10,308 nt of DNA, from UHGV virus genome UHGV-0120054. One strand, written 5' to 3'. The notes beneath the pieces are model-generated. The model ran no database searches and had not been told where the DNA came from. It saw only the letters and a list, made by a program, of their open reading frames with translations. A program made the translations under genes and the position numbers. Positions 1-9,933 of the stretch are shown here, piece after piece (position 1 is the stretch's first letter; each line of letters starts with the position of its first letter). Source of the DNA: a virus.

Positions 1-1
1 A

Positions 2-121
2 AGCCCAGGACTTACAGCAGATGCTGAACTCAATTATTACCGTCTACGAAGTGGAATCGACAGGATAACCGCGCAGGTTAACTACCTGCAGGAGTACATC
101 AGGACGCAATGCCTGAAATAA
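2..121 (+). CDS. 3' end of an upstream gene (partial, function unknown)
   Basis: Frame 2 is open from the window edge to TAA at 119-121 (…SPGLTADAELNYYRLRSGIDRITAQVNYLQEYIRTQCLK*). A second open frame overlaps it and ends at 66-68. Two intrinsic terminators follow. No family recognised. Confidence 0.3.
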   Translation, partial: SPGLTADAELNYYRLRSGIDRITAQVNYLQEYIRTQCLK

Positions 122-152
122 TTTTTTTGCAAATCACAAAGTCCATTTAATG

Positions 153-176
153 AGCCTCGCGATGCGGGGCTTTTTG
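153..176 (+). terminator. Rho-independent terminator (first of a tandem pair)
   Basis: GC-rich hairpin GCCTCGC-GATG-CGGGGC at 154-170, 6-7 bp stem with one G-U pair, followed directly by TTTTT at 171-175. Confidence 0.6.
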
Positions 177-182
177 CAATAA

Positions 183-207
183 ATGCGTACCGCAACGCAT
201 GTTTTTT
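183..207 (+). terminator. Rho-independent terminator (second of a tandem pair)
   Basis: Perfect 6-bp stem ATGCGT/ACGCAT at 183-188 and 195-200 with a 6-nt loop, followed by GTTTTTT at 201-207. Confidence 0.6.
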
Positions 208-322
208 ACACCGAACCTGCCCCTTTGGAATGGGCCTTTGAGGATACCAGTTAGTGCTGGCGAGCCTCGGTGGGCTGGTTTCCTGTGCGGCAAAGGTTCA
301 TTTCAAAGAGTAGGTACACGCT

Positions 323-820
323 ATGAAATCATTAACCCTCTTCAATCAACCAATTCGTATCGGTGAAGATGGCATGATCTGCCTCACTGATATGTGGAAA
401 GCCAGTGGTAAAAGTGAATCTGAATCGCCTTACCACTACCTGCGAAACAAGCAGACCAAAGAGTTCTTAGCCGAGCTGGAGAAAAACCACGAATCTGTGG
501 TTTTTACTGAGCGCGGTGTACACGGTGGAACATATGGCGGGAAGTTTGTTGCTTACGATTATGCGGCTTGGTTAAACCCCGGGTTCAAGTACGCGGCCTA
601 TAAAGTCCTCGATGACTACTTCACCGGAGAACTTCAGCATCGCAACAGCTTAAGTGCGCAGCTCAACATGAAATGTCATGAGTTTGACCAGAAGAAAGAC
701 ATGGCGAGCTTCTGCGGACAAGGGCTGGCAGCATGGCGCTATACGAAGCCAGTGTTGGTCGCTGAGATTAACTCCCTGGCTAACCAGTTGCAGATTACGA
801 TCCCCGGGCTTCCGGGATGA
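323..820 (+). CDS. KilA-N domain protein (possible antirepressor or DNA-binding regulator)
   Basis: 165-aa ORF. The N-terminal ~100 aa carry the KilA-N signature (LFNQPIRI…DGMICLTDMWKASGK…GTYGGKFVAYDYAAWLNPGFKYAAYKVLDDYF). Weak SD (AGGT) 7 nt upstream of the ATG. Confidence 0.8.
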   Translation: MKSLTLFNQPIRIGEDGMICLTDMWKASGKSESESPYHYLRNKQTKEFLAELEKNHESVVFTERGVHGGTYGGKFVAYDYAAWLNPGFKYAAYKVLDDYFTGELQHRNSLSAQLNMKCHEFDQKKDMASFCGQGLAAWRYTKPVLVAEINSLANQLQITIPGLPG

Positions 821-1074
821 GTGATCGTGTCATTGAATGCGCCTCCAGAGCGGGGCGTGACTTCTCAGAGTTCATGAAAGGTGAGAAGGGCATGATGGAA
901 GCATTGGCCTCGGTGGATGAGTTTGGCGAGCAGCTGCGCCTCAACGGCTGTGTCAATCATCACTTTGTTAGCTACATGATGCGGAACTCGATCATGCAGG
1001 CATTCATGGACATGGCAAAAGCCGAGAGGAAAGAAGAGCGCCGGCGTAAGCGAGCGGAAGCAAAAGCGAAGTAG
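817..1074 (+). CDS. hypothetical small protein with a strongly basic C-terminal tail, co-translated with the KilA-N gene
   Basis: 85-aa ORF whose ATG (817) overlaps the KilA-N stop (ATGA at 817-820). C-terminus is AKAERKEERRRKRAEAKAK. No family recognised. Confidence 0.5.
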   Translation: MSDRVIECASRAGRDFSEFMKGEKGMMEALASVDEFGEQLRLNGCVNHHFVSYMMRNSIMQAFMDMAKAERKEERRRKRAEAKAK

Positions 1075-1436
1075 CCATTACAAAGCCCATCTACGGGTGG
1101 GCTTGATAATGAAACCGGAGTTAATTTCTGGTCACTAATTAACGGCAGTACAGCGAAACAACCCAAGCCAGAAAGTGGGGAAATAACACTGGCAGCCACT
1201 GAAAGATGAACCTCCTGCCTGATGGCAAAAAAGATTCTTTGTGGTGGCGGACTGATGGAAAGACATCGGTTATTGCAGAGACCATTCAATGAGTGGTCTC
1301 GACAATGGCTTATACCCTACACGGGATAACTTAACTGATATCCCCACAAGCGGATAAAGAGATTCTCAATGTCAGGAATCTACTTTTAGTCCTAGTAATG
1401 ATGAACTAGATATCAGTTGAGTCGCTTGGGTGGTGA

Positions 1437-1673
1437 TTACGATTCTGCTTCAAACTCAGAAATTAGTTGATGAACACGTTCAGTATATGATGGGTTAGAA
1501 CCTAGAAACTCTTCCACTGTCTGAATGGTTTCATCACCCTCCCATTCAAAATGGCTCACAGGCGACGAATGACCAGCCCTGACTTGGTAGGAGCCATTGT
1601 CCAATTTGTCCAGGAATATATAAGTTTCATTATCATGAACTGTATTTCGGTAAAAAATTTGCTTTGAGTTCAT
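1437..1673 (-). CDS. hypothetical small acidic protein (moron, antisense to the late operon)
   Basis: 78-aa ORF on the minus strand with a good SD on that strand (AGAGGA, 8 nt before the ATG). Sits in a low-GC patch (about 25-45% GC in 60-bp blocks, against roughly 55% in the structural genes). Protein is net acidic. No family recognised. Confidence 0.55.
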   Translation of the reverse strand: MNSKQIFYRNTVHDNETYIFLDKLDNGSYQVRAGHSSPVSHFEWEGDETIQTVEEFLGSNPSYTERVHQLISEFEAES

Positions 1674-1697
1674 TAAAGAAATCCTCTAGAGAAAACT

Positions 1698-2249
1698 ATG
1701 GCACTCACCGACAAGCAAGAAATGTTCTGTCGCGAGTACCTCATCGATTTAAACGCCACGCAAGCGGCTATTCGGGCGGGGTACAGCGCAAAGACAGCTA
1801 ACCGTACCGCATCCGAAAACCTGTCAAAACCTGACATCAAGTTAAGAATCGCCGAACTGAAAGCGCAACGCAATGATCTTATTGGTATTAATGCAGAATA
1901 TGTACTTAATCGCCTTATTGAAATCGACCAGATGGATGTGCTCGACATTCTCCTGCAAAACGGTGAGCTAAAGCCCATTAAAGACTGGCCTAAGGTATGG
2001 CGCACAACGCTATCAGGAATGGATGTCGTGGAGATGGTATCCGCAGATAGCGCCGCACTTCTGAAGAAAATCAAATGGCCTGATAAGGTTAAAAACCTTG
2101 AGTTGCTTGGGCGTCATGTTTCTGTTCAGGCGTTTAAAGACAATGTCAAAAATGAAGTGACTGGTGCTGACGGAGGACCAGTCAGAACAGAAATTACCAA
2201 CTTAACGCCGGAGCAGGCTGCAGAGGCGTATAGAAAAATGATGGGCTAA
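1698..2249 (+). CDS. phage terminase small subunit (Terminase_2-like)
   Basis: 183-aa ORF. N-terminus [34 protein letters not shown]… matches the conserved HTH-like signature of this terminase small-subunit family. Lies immediately upstream of the large subunit. Confidence 0.8.
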
Positions 2250-2251
2250 GT

Positions 2252-3874
2252 ATGCCGTTACCATTCCCCTTCGATTTTAAACATCCTGATTACCAGATGG
2301 TTTTTGAATGGCGGATGGAACGCCTACAACGCATTCGCCAGAATCCTGAAATATTGCCTGCACTAAAACAGTTTTACCGAACCAATCCGGCTCAGTTCAT
2401 CATCGACTGGGGCATGACAACGGACCCGCGTAATATTGATTATGGCCTGCCGGTGACCATTCCGTTTTTACTCTTCCCTAAGCAGGAGGAGTGGATCCAC
2501 TGGATTATGGAACGCTGGAGTAATCGGGAGAATGGTATTACCGAAAAATCCCGTGAAATGGGGCTCAGTTGGACCGCGATCGGGCTGGCCTGCTCGCTTT
2601 GTCTCTTCAACAAAGAAATGGTTATCGGTTTCGGCTCCCGTAAAGAGGAATACGTCGACAGCACCGGTGACCCGAAGGCGCTGTTCTGGAAGGCGCGCAA
2701 GTTCGTGGAAACACTACCTGTAGAGTTTCGCGGTTCGTGGAGCGAGAAGAAGCACGCGCCATATATGCGTGTTGAGTTTCCTGAAACTGGTGCCGTTATC
2801 AAAGGCGAGGCTGGCGATAATATTGGTCGTGGTGACCGTACCACGCTTTATCTGGTTGATGAGGCTGCATTCCTTCAGCGTCCTCTGCTGATTGATGCGG
2901 CGTTGTCACAAACGACGCGTTGCCGTATCGACCTGAGTTCGGTTAACGGCATGGCGAACCCGTTCGCGCAGAAGCGTCACGGCGGGAAGATACCGGTATT
3001 CACATTCCACTGGCGGGATGATCCTCGCAAGGATGAAGAGTGGTATCGCAGGGAATGCGAGAAAATCGATAATCCGGTGGTGGTGGCACAGGAACTTGAT
3101 CTGAACTACAGCGCATCAGCGGAAGGCGTCCTGATTCCATCCGAATGGGTACAGGCTGCCGTTGATGCGCATATCAAACTGGGTATCCAGCCAACAGGCA
3201 AACGACTTGGCGCGATGGATGTCGCCGACGAAGGCAGGGACAAAAATGCCTTTTCCACCCGTCATGGCTTCCTCCTGGAGAATGTGCGGGAATGGTCCGG
3301 GGTGGGCAGCGACATTTATCAGTCCGTCGAGAAGGTCTTCGGCTTTTGCGAACAGGACAATCTTGATGAGTTTCGCTTTGACGAGGACGGGCTGGGCGCT
3401 GGCGTTCGCGGCGATGCACGCGCTATCAACGAACTGCGTAACGCTGCGCGCCGACCGTCAATACTCGCTACACCGTTTCGAGGTAGTGGCGCGGTATTTG
3501 ATCCGGATGATGAAGCTGTTCGCGGGGACAACGGGCAAGCCGCACGTCTGAACAAGGACTTCTTCGCTAACGCCAAAGCCCAGAGCTGGTGGCGGTTACG
3601 TAAACTTTTTCAGAATACCTGGCGCGCCGTGGTTGAAGGTATGGCTTACAACCCAGACGAAATCATCTCAATCAGCAGTAGCATGGCACTCAAAGATAAA
3701 CTCATCATCGAGCTTTCGCAGCCGACCTATTCCATTAATGGTGTGGGAAAAATCGTTATTGATAAACAGCCTGATGGAACCCGATCACCAAACCTTGCTG
3801 ACTCGGTGATGATCAACTATGCCCCAATGAATTCAGCCCTGAACATCTGGGAGCTGCTAGGGAGACAGGCCTGA
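2252..3874 (+). CDS. phage terminase large subunit (ATPase plus nuclease)
   Basis: 540-aa ORF. Deviant P-loop KSREMGLS (lambda gpA-like K-S-x-R-x-G-x-S, recalled from memory). Walker [12 protein letters not shown]-terminal RNase-H-like nuclease motifs [25 protein letters not shown] and [10 protein letters not shown]. Confidence 0.85.
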
Positions 3875-4392
3875 TGGCACGAAACAAGCAATCCTCTCAG
3901 CGAACGGCACAGGCCACCGCTGACGGCTACGAGAACTTCGTCGCCCGCGTTGGGATGAGCTCATTGCAGGAGCGCCGCTTACGGCTGCCGATGCGCCGGA
4001 TACTGGACATTATGCACCGCTCGGAACTCGGTAAGCCGCTGCCGGACGATTTCACGTTTGAGTTTAACCCGCTATGGCAAATGTCTGACGTTGACCGCTC
4101 AACGGTGGCCGTAAACACCACCAACGCGATCAGCACCGCGCTGGGCGACGGATTGATGACGCGTAAGGCGGCGATGACCGACCTGCGAGAAAACTCTGAC
4201 GTCACCGGCATCGGGGCATCCATTACCGACGAGGACGTAGAGAATGCCGAAGACGAAGCGCCGCCAGGCATCGGCGAACTTGGCGACAAACCGCCAGAGT
4301 CGCCAGGCGGAGATCCGATATCGAACGAGCCTACGGCAGATAGCGCGGGCGGTCGGGGATATCGTAAATGGGCGCTACGATGGTTCAAATGA
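3874..4392 (+). CDS. hypothetical protein in the position expected for the portal gene; possibly a portal remnant
   Basis: 172-aa ORF. ATG overlaps the terminase stop (TGATG at 3872-3876). Acidic C-terminal region (TDEDVENAEDEAPPG). Far too short for a portal (typically over 400 aa). The last 149 nt overlap the next gene in another frame, where that gene's frame has the higher third-position GC. Confidence 0.4.
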   Translation: MARNKQSSQRTAQATADGYENFVARVGMSSLQERRLRLPMRRILDIMHRSELGKPLPDDFTFEFNPLWQMSDVDRSTVAVNTTNAISTALGDGLMTRKAAMTDLRENSDVTGIGASITDEDVENAEDEAPPGIGELGDKPPESPGGDPISNEPTADSAGGRGYRKWALRWFK

Positions 4393-5017
4393 TAGCGTTA
4401 CCGAAATAATGGATGCGCTGGAGCGCTACAGCGAAATCATCACCCCCTGGGCGACGAAGGTTGCTGAGAACTTTACCGCCGACATTGCACGCCAGAATGA
4501 AAAGCAGTGGCGTCAGCACAGCCGGAACATCAGCGCAGAGCTGCGCAACATGGTCGACCGCGCCCCGGTAGGCCAGGTGATGAAATCCATCGTCGCCGAG
4601 CAAATTAAGTACATCAAGTCACTGCCTCTTGAGGCCGCCGATCGGGTGTATGACATTCAGAACAAGGCCATCGAGGCCGTTGTGTCTGGTGGCCGCGCTG
4701 AACCATTCGCGAAAGAGATAGCAGCGTCCGGTGACGTGTCACGCTCACGAGCGAACCTTATCGCCCGTACCGAGCTTGGACGTGCAACCGGCGCGCTGGA
4801 TCAGGCGCGTGCGCTGTCAATCGGCTCGAATGGTTATATCTGGCGTACAGCCGAAGATGGCGACGTCCGGCATTCTCATCGGGAGATGGAAGGTAAGTTT
4901 GTCGAATGGGGCAAACCTCCAACGCTTGATGGCATGACCGGTCACGCTGGCGAGCTCCCGAATTGTCGCTGTTATAAAGAAATCGTTTTTCCCAACCCTC
5001 ATTCTTATCTCGCCTGA
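4244..5017 (+). CDS. phage head morphogenesis protein, Mu F / SPP1 gp7 family
   Basis: 257-aa ORF. Hallmark C-terminal motifs LIARTELGRA … WRTAEDGDVRHSHREMEG … PNCRCY. SD GAGGA at 4231-4235, 8 nt before the ATG. The frame opens only one codon upstream (TAG 4238-4240). Alternative downstream start at 4409. Confidence 0.8.
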   Translation: MPKTKRRQASANLATNRQSRQAEIRYRTSLRQIARAVGDIVNGRYDGSNDSVTEIMDALERYSEIITPWATKVAENFTADIARQNEKQWRQHSRNISAELRNMVDRAPVGQVMKSIVAEQIKYIKSLPLEAADRVYDIQNKAIEAVVSGGRAEPFAKEIAASGDVSRSRANLIARTELGRATGALDQARALSIGSNGYIWRTAEDGDVRHSHREMEGKFVEWGKPPTLDGMTGHAGELPNCRCYKEIVFPNPHSYLA

Positions 5018-5031
5018 ATCGCAGGTAAACC

Positions 5032-6252
5032 ATGAAATATTTTTTCAATACCCGGCTGGGGGAAACCCGCTATCAGCTGGCTGACGGCTCGCTGCTGTGC
5101 AAAGACGTGCCGATAGGTCGAACGGGTAAGCAGCTCTACGGCGCTGCCGATCTGCCAAACCTCAAACCCGACAAGCTCGGTGAGATAGTCGTAACGCGTT
5201 CTCCTGAGCAGGTATTCCATCCGGCCACGCTCGCCTCATTCGAAGGGATGAGCATCACGATCCTGCATCCTGAAGATGAAAACGGGAATGTGCGGCTGGT
5301 AAATCCCGAGAACTGGAAAGAGCTTGCTGTCGGGCATCTTCAGAATGTGCGGCGCGGGACGGGTGACCAGTCTGATTTGATGCTGGCTGACCTTATCGTC
5401 AAAGACGAAAACGCCATTCAGCTTATCGAAGATGGCCTGCGTGAAGTGTCGTGCGGCTATGACGCGGAGTACGAGCAGACCGAGCCAGGTAAAGCCGAGC
5501 AGGTCGATATTACCGGAAACCATGTGGCTCTTGTCCCCAAAGGCAGAGCCGGAAATCGTTGTGCAATTGGAGACAGAGACACAATGGCAAATCAAAAGAA
5601 AAACTGGTGGAACCGCATGCGTGCAGCCATCAAGACAGGAGATGCCGACACCATGAACGAACTGGTGGAGTCGGCTCCCGCATCGGTTACAGGAGATGAG
5701 GGGGATTTGCCGCAGGGCGTTAATCTCAACATCAACCTGTCCCCGCAGCAACCACTACCGGACAAAGCACCAGAGATGGGTGGAGGTCCAACCGGCGACA
5801 GTGATGATGACCTCAAAACATTACTGAAAGCCCTGCTGGCTAAGCTGGAAGGAAATGCGACGGGCGATAACGACAATAATCCTGACGATAATCCGACCGG
5901 TGACGGCGAGGACTATGAAGAGGAAACCACGATTACTGGTGACTCAGCCTGGCGTGCCGAAGTTATCGTTCCGGGTATCGATCTGAGCCGTAAGATGAAA
6001 CCGACCGCGTTCAAACGCGAGGTTCTGGCTTCTGCTGACAAAACGCTGGTTCGCCAGATAGTCGGTGATGCGGATATCCGCAAATTACCGAAACAATCGG
6101 TCAACATGGCGTTTAATGCCGTGTCAGAGATTGCCAAAGGGCGAAACACCCGTACCACCATGGGCGATGCACAACGCCAAAATATGGGCATGACCAGCAT
6201 CGCTTCCCTGAACAAACAAAACGCCGAATTCTGGTCTAACCGCAAAGGATAA
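5032..6252 (+). CDS. putative head scaffold or maturation protein (DUF2213-like)
   Basis: 406-aa ORF directly after the MuF gene. Conserved N-terminal half followed by a long acidic low-complexity segment (GDSDDDLK…GDNDNNPDDNPTGDGEDYEEE). Family assignment is from memory of MuF/DUF2213/capsid head modules. Confidence 0.55.
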   Translation: MKYFFNTRLGETRYQLADGSLLCKDVPIGRTGKQLYGAADLPNLKPDKLGEIVVTRSPEQVFHPATLASFEGMSITILHPEDENGNVRLVNPENWKELAVGHLQNVRRGTGDQSDLMLADLIVKDENAIQLIEDGLREVSCGYDAEYEQTEPGKAEQVDITGNHVALVPKGRAGNRCAIGDRDTMANQKKNWWNRMRAAIKTGDADTMNELVESAPASVTGDEGDLPQGVNLNINLSPQQPLPDKAPEMGGGPTGDSDDDLKTLLKALLAKLEGNATGDNDNNPDDNPTGDGEDYEEETTITGDSAWRAEVIVPGIDLSRKMKPTAFKREVLASADKTLVRQIVGDADIRKLPKQSVNMAFNAVSEIAKGRNTRTTMGDAQRQNMGMTSIASLNKQNAEFWSNRKG

Positions 6253-6256
6253 TCCA

Positions 6257-6760
6257 ATGACTGCATATCTGTACCGGATGCCTGTTGGCATTGCCGGGGC
6301 TGTCTCTCGCCCGCAGGACTTAACCGTCGAACCGGTGGTCCTTAAATCCGATAACGCCTTCGCTGCCTATGGGCTGGCTGGTAAATACGATGCTGACGGT
6401 TTTTTCGTACCGCTGGCAGATGGTGATACCGCAGACAAGGTGAAGGGGATCTACGTGCGCCCTTATCCGACCACGTCGCAGCCGGACATGGTTCGCCAGG
6501 TGGGGAGTGGCAAGAACTTCCCGGGAGACGCCATGAAGCGTGGCTACGTGACCGTTAATCTCGGTTCTGATTTTGATGCCAGCACCATCAAAAAAGGCGA
6601 CCCGGTATACGTTGTCGTCTCCGCTGATGAATCCATCAAAGTGCCGCTGGGTGGATTCATGTCCACGTCAGTCAGTGGCAAAAATGTGGTGCTGACCAAC
6701 GCTGAATTCACAGGTGCCGGTGATGCTAACGGCAATGCAGAAATTTCCTGGAAGATTTAA
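6257..6760 (+). CDS. putative small head structural or decoration protein
   Basis: 167-aa ORF with SD AGGA, lying between the scaffold-like gene and the capsid gene. Gly/Val-rich, beta-rich-looking sequence. Confidence 0.45.
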   Translation: MTAYLYRMPVGIAGAVSRPQDLTVEPVVLKSDNAFAAYGLAGKYDADGFFVPLADGDTADKVKGIYVRPYPTTSQPDMVRQVGSGKNFPGDAMKRGYVTVNLGSDFDASTIKKGDPVYVVVSADESIKVPLGGFMSTSVSGKNVVLTNAEFTGAGDANGNAEISWKI

Positions 6761-6771
6761 GGAACAGACGA

Positions 6772-7584
6772 ATGATTACTTTTGATCAGGCAACCGTTGA
6801 CAGCTCTGGTGCCTTTCTCATCGGGGAGCTGGAGCGACTCGACCAGACGCTGAACCTGCCACTGGTGGGGTACACCTGGACCCGCGATATTCAGTTGCGT
6901 GAAGATGTCTCCATCGCAGATGACATTTCCAGCTGGACGAATACCAGCTTCGCCGCTGCGGGTACTGGCGCAAATCCGAATGGCAAAAACTGGGTAGGCA
7001 AAGACTCAACCGCTATTGCTGGCGTGAACGTGGATATCGGCAAATCCGGTAACCCGCTGAACCTGTGGGGGATGGAGCTTGGCTGGACGGTCATAGAATT
7101 GCAGGCTGCTCAGCAGGTCGGACGCCCGATTGATACGCAGAAGTATGACGGGATGCAACTGAAATGGCAGATGGATAACGATGAACAGGTGTATGTTGGC
7201 GATTCCGCATTAAACCTGAAAGGCCTTGTTACCCTGAACGGTGTTCCTGTCAACAACGCTGCCAAAACGTGGGCAACCTCAACACCGGACGAAATCCGCG
7301 CAAGCATTAACCAGGTGCTGTCTGATGCGTGGGCCGCTTCCGGTTACTCTGTGGTTCCGCGTGATTTGCTGATCCCACCTGAGCAGTTTGCTCTGTTGTC
7401 CAGCATCATCGTTTCATCTGCGGGTAACCAGTCCCTGTTGACGTACCTTCAGACCAACACCATCAGCTATCACCAGAACGGTGTTCCGCTGAATATCCGC
7501 GCGGTTAAATGGCTGAAAGGCCGTGGTGTGGGGAATAAGGATCGCATGGTTGCGTACACCAACGATAAAAAATACGTCCGCTAA
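6772..7584 (+). CDS. major capsid protein (DUF2184-like)
   Basis: 270-aa ORF with a strong SD (AAGGAA). Position after the scaffold and small head protein genes is that of a major capsid gene. Sequence is consistent with capsid proteins of this head-module type, recalled from memory. Confidence 0.6.
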   Translation: MITFDQATVDSSGAFLIGELERLDQTLNLPLVGYTWTRDIQLREDVSIADDISSWTNTSFAAAGTGANPNGKNWVGKDSTAIAGVNVDIGKSGNPLNLWGMELGWTVIELQAAQQVGRPIDTQKYDGMQLKWQMDNDEQVYVGDSALNLKGLVTLNGVPVNNAAKTWATSTPDEIRASINQVLSDAWAASGYSVVPRDLLIPPEQFALLSSIIVSSAGNQSLLTYLQTNTISYHQNGVPLNIRAVKWLKGRGVGNKDRMVAYTNDKKYVR

Positions 7585-8456
7585 CCGGTACGGCAGGCAC
7601 GACTATCTCGAATGGTTCTGCACGGGATAAAAACGGCATTATCTGGAATTTTCCAGCGAGTGTAGCGATCGGCGTTGATGGTACTGTGCTGGTGACGGCC
7701 ACATGTGCGAATAGCGGTTCGGTTGCGGCGCTGGCCGGGACTATTACCACTATCAACACCCCGACCCGAGGTTGGGTGTCGGTAACCAATCCTGCTGCAG
7801 CCACTGTGGGCACTCCGGCAGAAACTGATGCGGAGTTACGTATCCGCCAGTCGCAAAGTGTTGCGTTGCCATCAATAACCCCATTTGAAGCACTGGATGG
7901 TGCTGTTTCTAATGTTACCGGTGTAACCCGCCACAAACTCTATGAAAACGATACTGGTTCGGAGGACGGTAACGGGTTACCGCCACACTCTGTTGCTGTA
8001 ATTGTGGATGGCGGTGATGTGACGGATATTGCTCAGGCTATCAGAGGAAATAAAGGCCAGGGGACAGCCACTCACGGTACAACATCCGTTACGGTTCCGG
8101 ATAAATACGGCAATCCCCATGTAATCAAATTCTCGCGTTCCAGTGATGTGCCTGTTTATGCCCGGATTAAATTAAAAGTTTTTACGGGTTATACCTCACA
8201 GATAGGGCAGCAGATCCAGCAGGCTATTTCCGACTATATCAATAGTCTGACGATTGGTGATTCGGTCCTTTTAAGTCGCATTTACTCACCGGCGAATCTT
8301 GGCGTGGTGAGTGGCGGGAATGCACGCTATTACGATATTCAGGAACTGACGATTGGGAAATCCCCGGGGGCTTTGTCGTCATCAAACATTGATATCAGAT
8401 ACAACGAATCTGCGTCCTGTACCCCGGAAAATATCGTTATAACGGTGGAGTCATGA
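7569..8456 (+). pseudogene. baseplate J-like (gp47 / P2 gpJ family) gene, 5'-truncated
   Basis: Open frame of 296 codons starting inside the end of the capsid gene and containing no ATG at all. First possible start is GTG at 7686 with no convincing SD. Conserved J-family motif AETDAELRIRQSQS. No sheath, tube, tape-measure or other baseplate genes lie between capsid and this frame. Confidence 0.7.
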
Positions 8457-9133
8457 GCAAATACACCGAACTAATCACGAACTACCACGTCACCAAACCT
8501 AAATTTCTTGCACATGTTGATCTGATGACCCGGCCGCTTATTGATGTTGCGGCTGCCACCAGAGGGCTGATTACTGCATTTGATATTGACTCTGCGGTTG
8601 GTGTGCAACTTGACATTCTGGGATTGTGGATCGGGCGTAGCCGTGTTGTCAGCCAGCCTATCTCAGGTGTCTATTTCAGCTGGGATACCGACGGGCTTGG
8701 ATATGATCAGGGGGTATGGCAGGGGCCATATGATCCTGATTCCGGATACATGTATCTCAGCGATGAAACTTATCGTGTCATTCTTAAAGCGAAGATTGCG
8801 ATTAATAACTGGGACGGACGGAATGATTCGCTTCCAGCAATTCTTGACGCTGCAACAGCAGGATCCGGGCTGCGAATGCAGATAGTCGATAACCAGGACA
8901 TGACGATATCGGTCTGGGTCTTTCCTGATACTGATATTTCAGATGTATCGCGTGAGTTAATTGCGGCAATTAAACAGGGGTATCTCACAGTAAAAGCCGC
9001 CGGGGTGTGGGCAGGTGGCATTGAAACACCTTCGGTGGAAACCCCATCGGAAGGCTCAAATTTTTTTGGTTTTGATATGGATAATGAATTCATCAGTGGT
9101 TTTGATGTAGGAGCATGGGGAGTATTACTCTGA
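8453..9133 (+). CDS. gpI-like baseplate or tail protein (DUF2612-like)
   Basis: 226-aa ORF. ATG overlaps the J-like stop (ATGA at 8453-8456). Position between baseplate J and the tail fibre matches P2 gpI / Mu gp48 / e14 YmfQ-type proteins. Confidence 0.55.
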
Positions 9134-9933
9134 TGGCGAAAAATGACTTTAAAGCGTTTGCAACGGATCGAAATGCCAATGTTATGTCGCAGGAGGAATG
9201 GGAAGCGTTGCCTGCGCTTTTATCCGGATTTACAGCAGGGAAAGCATCCAGTGCGCAAGTCAATAAGGTTATTCGGCAGGCCAGCTTTATTACTGCAGCT
9301 CTGGCCCAGTTTGTAAGTGACAAAACGCAACGGGATGTGCTTGATAATGGTGATCTGCCCGGTTTTGTTGAATTGCTGGGATCGGGGTTTGCTGTTGAAT
9401 ACCTGAGTCGCAAGAATCCGTTTGGCGATATCAAATCGGATGGCACGGTGAAAACGGCTCTCGAAAACCTTGGTTTGGGAGAAGGCTCTGCATTACCTGT
9501 TGGTGTGCCTGTTCCATGGCCTTCAGCCACACCGCCAACAGGCTGGCTGAAATGCAACGGTGCGGCTTTTTCTTCTGAAAAGTACCCAAATCTGGCAAAG
9601 GTTTACCCAACGTTAAAATTACCTGATTTACGCGGTGAGTTTATCCGTGGTTGGGATGATGGGCGAGGTGTGGATGCGGGAAGGGTCATCTTAAGCATAC
9701 AGGGGTGGTTAACAGGAAGTCATTATCATAATATTCGGTCATGGGACGCGTGGGATAACACGGTATTGGTGCCAAATGACAGAGGGGGGGATAGTCTGTT
9801 GTCTACAGATAACGCCGTCCAAGAAGGAGCGATTAATGGTAAATTTACCAGTCAATACAGAACGGAGTTTTCAGGGGGAAATGAAACCCGCCCACGTAAC
9901 ATCGCCTTCAATTATATTGTGAGAGCTGCATAA
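9133..9933 (+). CDS. tail fibre protein with a C-terminal phage tail-collar domain
   Basis: Open frame runs from ATG 9115, but ATG 9133 is the better start: it overlaps the upstream stop (TGATG) and has GGGGAG 10 nt upstream. Tail-collar signature [33 protein letters not shown]…[17 protein letters not shown]. Confidence 0.8.
9458..9483. other. Gin/Hin/Cin/Pin-type serine-invertase crossover site inside the tail-fibre gene
   Basis: CTCTCGAAAACC-TT-GGTTTGGGAGAA: an imperfect dyad with the AAACC-NN-GGTTT core. Matches hixL/gixL-type sites at about 10 of 12 positions per half-site (consensus quoted from memory). Falls at tail-fibre codons ~109-117 (ALENLGLGE). Confidence 0.6.

Follow-up and report, generated by a model that had tools for sequence, protein, structure and literature searches.

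The 172-codon open reading frame (ORF) between the genes for the large terminase subunit (TerL) and the MuF-type head morphogenesis protein in viral contig UHGV-0120054 very probably (roughly 0.9) derives by deletion from the portal gene of a temperate enterobacterial myophage of the SEN34-like, Brunovirus type, a case of ordinary deletional decay. The contig was analysed over its whole length of 10,308 nt (the window, to which all positions refer), and the features given below with contig coordinates lie on the plus strand. The loss of the portal involves no new mechanism and no new family. Beyond annotation, the portal finding matters little; its by-products are a corrected MuF start with a conserved overlap and a possible recurrent breakpoint.

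Portal ancestry of the 172-codon ORF

The TerL gene (2252-3874) is full length: it encodes 540 aa, matches PHROG 2 (terminase large subunit, 1.9e-32), equals the TerL of SEN34, 611R5, and E2348/69 in length and shares 86-97% nucleotide identity with them. Its TGA stop codon (3872-3874) overlaps by 1 nt with the ATG (3874-3876) of the following ORF (TGATG), as had been noticed when the sequence alone was read. That ORF (3874-4392) encodes 172 aa and sits directly 3' of TerL and 5' of MuF, which is the position of the portal gene in this family. In Salmonella phage SEN34 (a Brunovirus), Hafnia phage yong1, Escherichia phage vB_EcoM-611R5, and the E2348/69 prophage of E. coli, the same slot is taken by an intact gene for a portal of 481-489 aa, and the product therefore falls short of full portal length (~480-490 aa in close relatives). 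The sequence-only reading had also stated that this short ORF takes the place of a full-length portal between terminase and MuF, and both the ORF list and tblastn agree: with the SEN34 portal as the query, matches were obtained only at 3874-3963 (residues 1-30) and 3934-4389, and no second portal was found in either the 10.3-kb contig or a 13.5-kb sister contig (L003).

Profile searches place the ORF in a portal family by its C-terminal part. Pfam PF06381 (Phage_portal_3/DUF1073) was matched at 1.4e-9 and 37.6 bits (cutoff 33.8), over profile positions 299-355 of 357 only, a stretch of 57 positions at the end of the model, and PHROG 146 (portal) at 3.2e-35 over profile positions 350-502 of 587. 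For the NCBIfam model TIGR01555, the remnant scored 34 bits, below the cutoff of 196.25, vs 256.3 for the intact SEN34 portal. When the 172-aa sequence was used as a tblastn query, its residues 21-172 aligned with the 3' end of ~1.45-kb portal genes in 45 phage records. The ORF thus appears to be derived from the DUF1073/Phage_portal_3/TIGR01555 family, without being a complete member of it. The 'acidic tail' noted earlier is roughly right, as the C-terminal tail of the product runs from an acidic segment (DEDVENAEDEA) through one rich in Pro and Gly to a basic end.

An in-frame deletion of 948 bp

BLAST and alignment against SEN34, Citrobacter phage Omnitron, and E2348/69 showed that exactly 948 bp, or 316 codons, are missing at 3957|3958 (junction feature 3956-3958). 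Codons 29-344 of 488 are gone and residues 1-28 are joined to residues 345-488 with the reading frame kept, which shortens the protein from 488 to 172 aa. The retained 5' piece (3874-3957, codons 1-28) is colinear with the 5' end of intact portal genes, and the retained 3' piece (3958-4392, codons 345-488 plus the stop) is the part recognized by PF06381 and PHROG 146 and is 96% identical at the amino acid level to the C-terminus of the Omnitron portal. Colinearity with the relatives extends over contig positions 2211-3957 on one side of the deletion and 3958-7586 on the other. The portals of SEN34 (SEN34_3, YP_009191609.1, 488 aa) and E2348/69 (WP_000113480.1, 481 aa) share the slot, the TGATG, and the overlap with MuF, are colinear with remnant residues 1-28 and 29-172 at 83-99% identity, and retain the 316 internal codons that the remnant lacks. 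The internal deletion in a portal gene that had been proposed as the explanation of the short ORF is hereby borne out and delimited: the two parts of the 172-aa sequence correspond to the two ends of a full portal (1-28 to 1-28 and 29-172 to 345-488), and comparison with each of the three intact relatives puts the junction at 3957|3958.

At the junction, the TG at 3956-3957 can be assigned to either flank (left GTTGGGATG, right CCGGGTG), and the junction sequence ATGAGCTCAT is a perfect 10-bp palindrome. The flanks share 2-5 nt of microhomology (GGGATG left, GGG-TG right). Since only the TG is shared without interruption, the junction bears the mark of illegitimate, microhomology-mediated rather than homologous recombination. 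A single illegitimate recombination event at this microhomology probably removed the 948 bp from a SEN34-like portal gene. The lost segment is by chance a multiple of three in length, so that the native start, still coupled to TerL, leads into the native last 144 codons.

Structural losses and possible function of the product

Portals form a dodecameric ring at one unique vertex of the capsid and are needed to assemble the packaging vertex; the wing, stem, and clip of their canonical fold come before the C-terminal crown. An intact portal of this type aligns over residues 15-405 with the Pam3 portal (gp3, 8hds; 5.3e-35) and over residues 58-387 with E217 gp19 (8fvh), while the remnant aligns only to ~Pam3 residues 331-389 and otherwise retains an unaligned tail. 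Hence, the deleted residues 29-344 make up nearly the whole region that aligns to solved portals. From this alignment coverage and the canonical domain order, we infer that the channel-forming parts, i.e., the wing, stem, and clip, are lost from the remnant; the main texts of the Pam3 (PMC9942802) and E217 (PMC10329688) papers give no residue ranges for the portal domains. With nearly all structure-aligned portal sequence absent, and given the known role of portals, the remnant would be unable to form a dodecameric ring. The AlphaFold2 (AF2) model of the 172-aa product is of moderate confidence (pLDDT 62.6). Residues 29-125 are modelled as a few helices (pLDDT 70-87) that form a compact unit, and the ends are predicted to be disordered, including residues 131-172, the tail encoded within the overlap with MuF. 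A Foldseek search of the model against the PDB returned no meaningful match (best E = 4.7).

A residual function of the fragment may exist, given the intact TerS, TerL, MuF, scaffold, and cement genes and the preserved reading frame. The product could, e.g., have been retained as a dominant-negative portal fragment that disturbs head assembly in superinfecting relatives, or its translation could be required for the expression of the overlapping MuF gene. The in-frame deletion, the native start with its coupling to the TerL stop, and the compact helical unit of residues 29-125 would be in line with such a role, as would the several degraded relatives that retain the same portal C-terminal piece fused to other genes. 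However, one third of deletions are in frame by chance, and the fusions in other genomes came from a search whose query favours that very piece, which makes them an ascertainment-biased sample. The allele is moreover rare. The exact 172-aa protein occurs on only three ENA contigs, which are near-identical and thus hold no diversity from which selection could be gauged. The exact 37-nt portal junction was not found in GTDB representative genomes, JGI metagenomes, or IMG/VR, and the junctions of both this deletion and the second one described below are absent from 5,426 complete Escherichia coli genomes. The head module is present in 382 of these 5,426 genomes, and in 338 of the 382, portal plus MuF is covered to at least 80%; intact portal alleles are the norm and the deletion allele is rare. 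Together with the adjoining capsid and baseplate genes, which are plainly broken, these observations make a retained functional protein highly improbable, and deletional decay of a portal gene remains the preferred reading.

Provenance of the contig and reality of the junction

The window constitutes an entire ENA metagenome contig (ERZ651857, NODE_2904) with a coverage of ~4.6x. With a coverage this low (4.6), and in a metagenome that may hold co-occurring related prophages, an assembler might have skipped 948 bp of a portal gene that is in reality intact. This is extremely improbable. Both deletion junctions recur in a separate assembly produced with another assembler, namely in L003, which comes from a human-gut metagenome (MEGAHIT k127 vs SPAdes NODE) and is 100% identical to the contig over positions 1-9443, and three contigs carry the exact protein. 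The 2-5 nt that the flanks share is far under the k-mer length, and a de Bruijn join needs reads that span the junction. Because the flanks share at most 5 nt and L003 is identical, an assembler artefact is for practical purposes ruled out. Differences between the contig and L003 are restricted to one SNP and a tail-fibre switch, and with such near-identity the two probably represent one strain, so that together they confirm the allele less strongly than two independent samples would.

Host DNA is not reached in either the 10.3-kb contig or the 13.5-kb L003, and neither has an attachment site. Chromosomal prophages of E. coli are the closest intact relatives (97-99.5% identity), and on this basis the element is taken to be a prophage as well. 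Alternatively, it could stem from a mixed population that includes a defective phage genome.

The portal/MuF overlap and the start of MuF

The MuF (SPP1 gp7-like) head morphogenesis gene (4244-5017) encodes 257 aa and is well supported by PF04233 (Phage_Mu_F; 3.4e-18, 66.9 bits, cutoff 29.6), TIGR01641 (45.4 bits, cutoff 39.65), and phrog_324 (7e-90, residues 5-255 of 257). The first 149 nt of the gene (4244-4392) overlap with the portal ORF, with MuF in the +1 frame relative to portal. A GAGGA Shine-Dalgarno sequence (4231-4235) lies inside the portal coding sequence, 9 nt 5' of the ATG at 4244, and both elements are unchanged in five related phages. The alternative ATG at 4409, which is often chosen by gene callers, reads ATT in 611R5. 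Taken together, the sequence comparisons point to the ATG at 4244 as the true start of MuF. The overlap itself, its proper Shine-Dalgarno sequence and ATG, and the higher third-position GC content (GC3) of the MuF frame within it had all been reported from the sequence alone and were found again here, the latter with slightly different values (69% vs 52% for the portal frame, compared with 67% vs 54%).

The overlap is not restricted to the deletion allele. It occurs with the same MuF ATG in SEN34, Omnitron, yong1, vB_EcoM-611R5, and E2348/69, all of which are intact, and the position of the portal stop agrees within one codon in five relatives. In the ~50% identical phages Mulock, EKP1, and PSTCR3, the N-terminal extension of MuF is kept in a frame that overlaps with the portal 3' end; in EKP1, the overlap is likewise 149 nt and the protein begins with MP. 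It is thus an ancestral and normal feature of head-module architecture, unrelated to the deletion. A programmed frameshift from portal into MuF was considered and rejected, as the MuF frame has stops just 5' of 4244 and MuF has its own conserved Shine-Dalgarno sequence and ATG.

The two frames appear to be under different constraints. Upstream of 4244, 71 of 96 variable columns in an alignment of five phages fall at portal third positions. Over 4300-4408, the variable columns among five phages are distributed as 19/3/3 over MuF codon positions 3/1/2 (19/25, p = 3.6e-5), and over 4300-4389 the amino acid identity among five phages is 0.94 in the MuF frame vs 0.80 in the portal frame. This is consistent with purifying selection that from ~4300 onwards acts on the MuF frame but no longer on the portal frame. 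As the reading frame survives the deletion, the 172-aa product ends in the authentic portal C-terminus, a native, presumably translated, and weakly constrained tail. This tail is probably dispensable, as the portal frame of E2348/69 stops 7 residues early (TAG) while its 257-aa MuF ORF is unbroken. The earlier suggestion that the tail of the 172-codon frame is not genuine coding sequence is therefore upheld only insofar as constraint from ~4300 lies in the MuF frame; it fails on the native register of the tail, with the frame kept and the overlap shared by intact relatives. That the last ~50 codons are a spurious read-through caused by decay, and the overlap a symptom of damage, is barely conceivable: the lower GC3 of the portal frame, the substitutions at MuF third positions from 4300, and the lower portal-frame identity would fit, but the frame is preserved, the register of the tail is that of intact, plaque-forming or inducible phages, and the conserved stop and the overlap in ~50% identical phages speak against it.

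It follows that the MuF genes of a widespread enterobacterial head module would begin ~165 nt 5' of their usual annotated start, inside the portal gene, and that a 149-nt overlap of this kind should not be read as damage by gene callers or readers.

Further deletions in the element

Pfam assignments give the gene order on the contig as TerS, MuF, a DUF2213 scaffold-like gene, cement, and major capsid, followed by baseplate J, DUF2612, and tail fibre. The cement and capsid families of the head module are those of the E217/Pam3/XM1 type. The major capsid gene (MCP; 6772-7584) is truncated at its 3' end: it encodes 270 aa vs 313 aa in intact relatives such as 611R5, covers PF09950 over profile positions 4-207 of 251 only, and lacks its last 43 codons, with a TAA stop that arises at a second deletion junction (7583-7585). 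Terminase and capsid genes had both been regarded as intact on first reading, which holds for the full-length TerL and does not hold for the capsid.

At this second junction, ~10.7 kb is missing relative to 611R5, in which the positions equivalent to contig 7587 and 7671 are 23650 and 34476, respectively. The deletion extends from the 3' end of MCP to codon ~108 of baseplate J and takes with it every neck, sheath, tube, tape-measure, and baseplate-hub gene. The remaining baseplate J remnant (7585-8456) lacks the first ~107 codons and the start of the 399-aa protein of 611R5; its protein homology begins at ~7585 (LTGTAGTTI), out of frame with the capsid gene, and it covers PF04865 over profile positions 67-252 of 255. 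On L003, the longer of the two sister contigs, genes of the early left operon (abc2, dam, and others) directly adjoin a 5'-truncated Rz, and genes for immunity, replication, an antiterminator, a holin, or an endolysin are absent between them. Several virion-essential genes (portal, MCP, and the neck/tail genes) are therefore lost or broken, which is the type of gene loss by which prophages are classed as defective. Taken as a whole, the element is a phage remnant with several deletions, dead DNA that is decaying by deletion. Metagenome surveys should not include the contig among intact or inducible prophages, or among viral genomes.

Further deletion alleles of this head module

The portal fragment of E. 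coli B/BL21, which is annotated as 'anti-CBASS protein Acb1 family protein', is also truncated by deletion in a decayed prophage. There, the 5' 753 nt are kept and the 3' part is lost, whereas in the contig both ends are kept and the middle is lost. Public assemblies also contain an allele (L012) of the same head module in which portal residues 1-95 are joined to residues ~417 to the end. The microhomology-mediated deletions in L011 (O'::'portal), L013-15 (cro-like'::'portal), L016 (dam'::'portal), and L019 likewise have an endpoint in the 3' region of the portal gene. The left partners and gene content of the L011-L019 alleles are unlike those of the contig, and some retain a complete capsid and tail set.

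A candidate recurrent breakpoint in the portal 3' region

Several of these deletions end at nearly the same positions. They were collected in a protein homologue search in which all returned proteins were at most 293 aa, many of them decay products of the same module. Site 1 (codon 344, GGTG|AGCTCA) is part of the palindrome TGAGCTCA and was involved in three independent events with endpoints within 0-4 nt and different left partners: I) the portal's own 5' end in the contig, II) an HK97-type O gene in L011, and III) early-region sequence in L019, an E. coli prophage that adjoins sbcB and is present in at least 10 assemblies. Each of the three junctions reads GATGAGCTC, whereas the corresponding codon is GTN or ATT in six intact alleles; in L011, the ATG is native to the O gene. 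Site 2 (CGG(A/G)TA|CTGGAC), 42 nt 3' of site 1, accounts for two more independent events, with the cro-like and dam partners.

As the query was the retained portal piece, this sample of breakpoints is ascertainment-biased, and an unbiased DNA scan of complete E. coli genomes gave no support for a hotspot, since the only partial copies it returned were of the E. coli B type (nt 1-753). The coincidence of endpoints is thus suggestive only, and it is unlikely that the portal 3' region is a genuine recurrent deletion endpoint. If it were, it could reflect a site-specific source of DNA ends, or selection to keep the in-portal start of MuF and the downstream genes while lethal early, lysis, or packaging genes are dropped, and it would offer a small handle on prophage inactivation by deletion. 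A further short portal ORF (P0002, 146 aa, starting with MSSLQ) was considered as an allele of this kind and rejected, as its portal aligns end to end with the exception of one indel; this indel splits the gene into ORFs of 334 and 146 aa on low-coverage contigs.

Possible clustering of deletion endpoints in the portal gene

The right breakpoint of the portal deletion in the window reads GATG|AGCTC and lies within the palindrome TGAGCTCA. Its endpoint (window 3953-3962) was compared with those of other deletion and fusion alleles of the same head module in public assemblies (L011 7716-7732, L019 5985-6000, L013 4296-4310, and L016 213-227). In L011 and L019, independent deletions whose left partners differ, the endpoints fall 0-4 nt from the right breakpoint of the window, and two further deletions, in L013 and L016, share one endpoint, 42 nt downstream of it. 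The 3' breakpoint region of the portal gene may be a deletion hotspot, judged from a breakpoint sample that is ascertainment-biased; a scan of complete E. coli genomes lent the hotspot no support.

Annotation of the portal and MuF genes

The 28 N-terminal residues retained in the portal ORF (window 3874-3957) weakly resemble residues 317-344 of the intact protein (..QS..T..AD..N(F/Y)..RV..), i.e., the 28 residues directly before the right breakpoint. Because of this likeness, which is probably a matter of chance, aligners and tblastn merge the two portal pieces, and the portal deletion can be masked in protein-level searches; the tblastn matches in Klebsiella phages, for example, span query residues 5-171 without a break. 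Members and fragments of the portal family, DUF1073, are annotated by NCBI as 'anti-CBASS protein Acb1 family protein', e.g., in E. coli B/BL21 genomes (such as NZ_CP170101.1 753275-754027) and in several matches from the protein homolog search. The same family is named Phage_portal_3 in Pfam, and the intact DUF1073 protein aligns to the solved portals of Pam3 and E217. The Acb1 name looks misleading for the DUF1073/Phage_portal_3 family.

The MuF start in this head module is systematically mis-annotated. In public annotations it comes after the stop codon of the portal gene, and the annotated proteins have 176-202 aa; the pattern of conservation favours an upstream ATG and a protein of 257 aa (window 4244-4408 and the equivalents in SEN34, yong1, vB_EcoM-611R5, Mulock, PSTCR3, and the E2348/69 prophage). 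The downstream ATG in common use is absent from vB_EcoM-611R5.

Rz junction, block upstream of TerS, and tail fibre gene

A third junction of the element lies upstream of the window, at 2803-3857 of L003, a sister contig from a human gut metagenome. Here, the anti-RecBCD gene (abc2) of the early-left operon adjoins an Rz gene, whose homology to known Rz begins only at L003 3437, and no immunity, replication, or holin/endolysin genes were found between abc2 and Rz in this contig. The Rz 3' end occupies window 1-~120. Whereas TerS directly follows Rz in vB_EcoM-611R5, the window carries an extra block (323-1673) in between, containing a regulator-like gene of the KilA-N/ORF11CD3 type (323-820), a gene for an 85-aa protein of phrog_875, function unknown (817-1074), and a reverse-strand 78-aa ORF without a family match (1437-1673). 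Given its 95-99% identity to lambdoid phages, Stx-converting ones among them, the block looks like a mosaic moron insertion.

The tail fibre gene (window 9115-9933) contains a Gin/Cin/Hin-type invertase crossover site, CTCTCGAAAACC-TT-GGTTTGGGAGAA, at window 9458-9483 (L003 13194-13219). The window and L003, otherwise identical, diverge right after the central TT of this site, and the encoded fibre C-termini differ; vB_EcoM-611R5 has a DNA invertase nearby, and fibre/assembly genes in opposite orientation. On these grounds, the window and L003 appear to be two alternative states of one invertible host-range segment.
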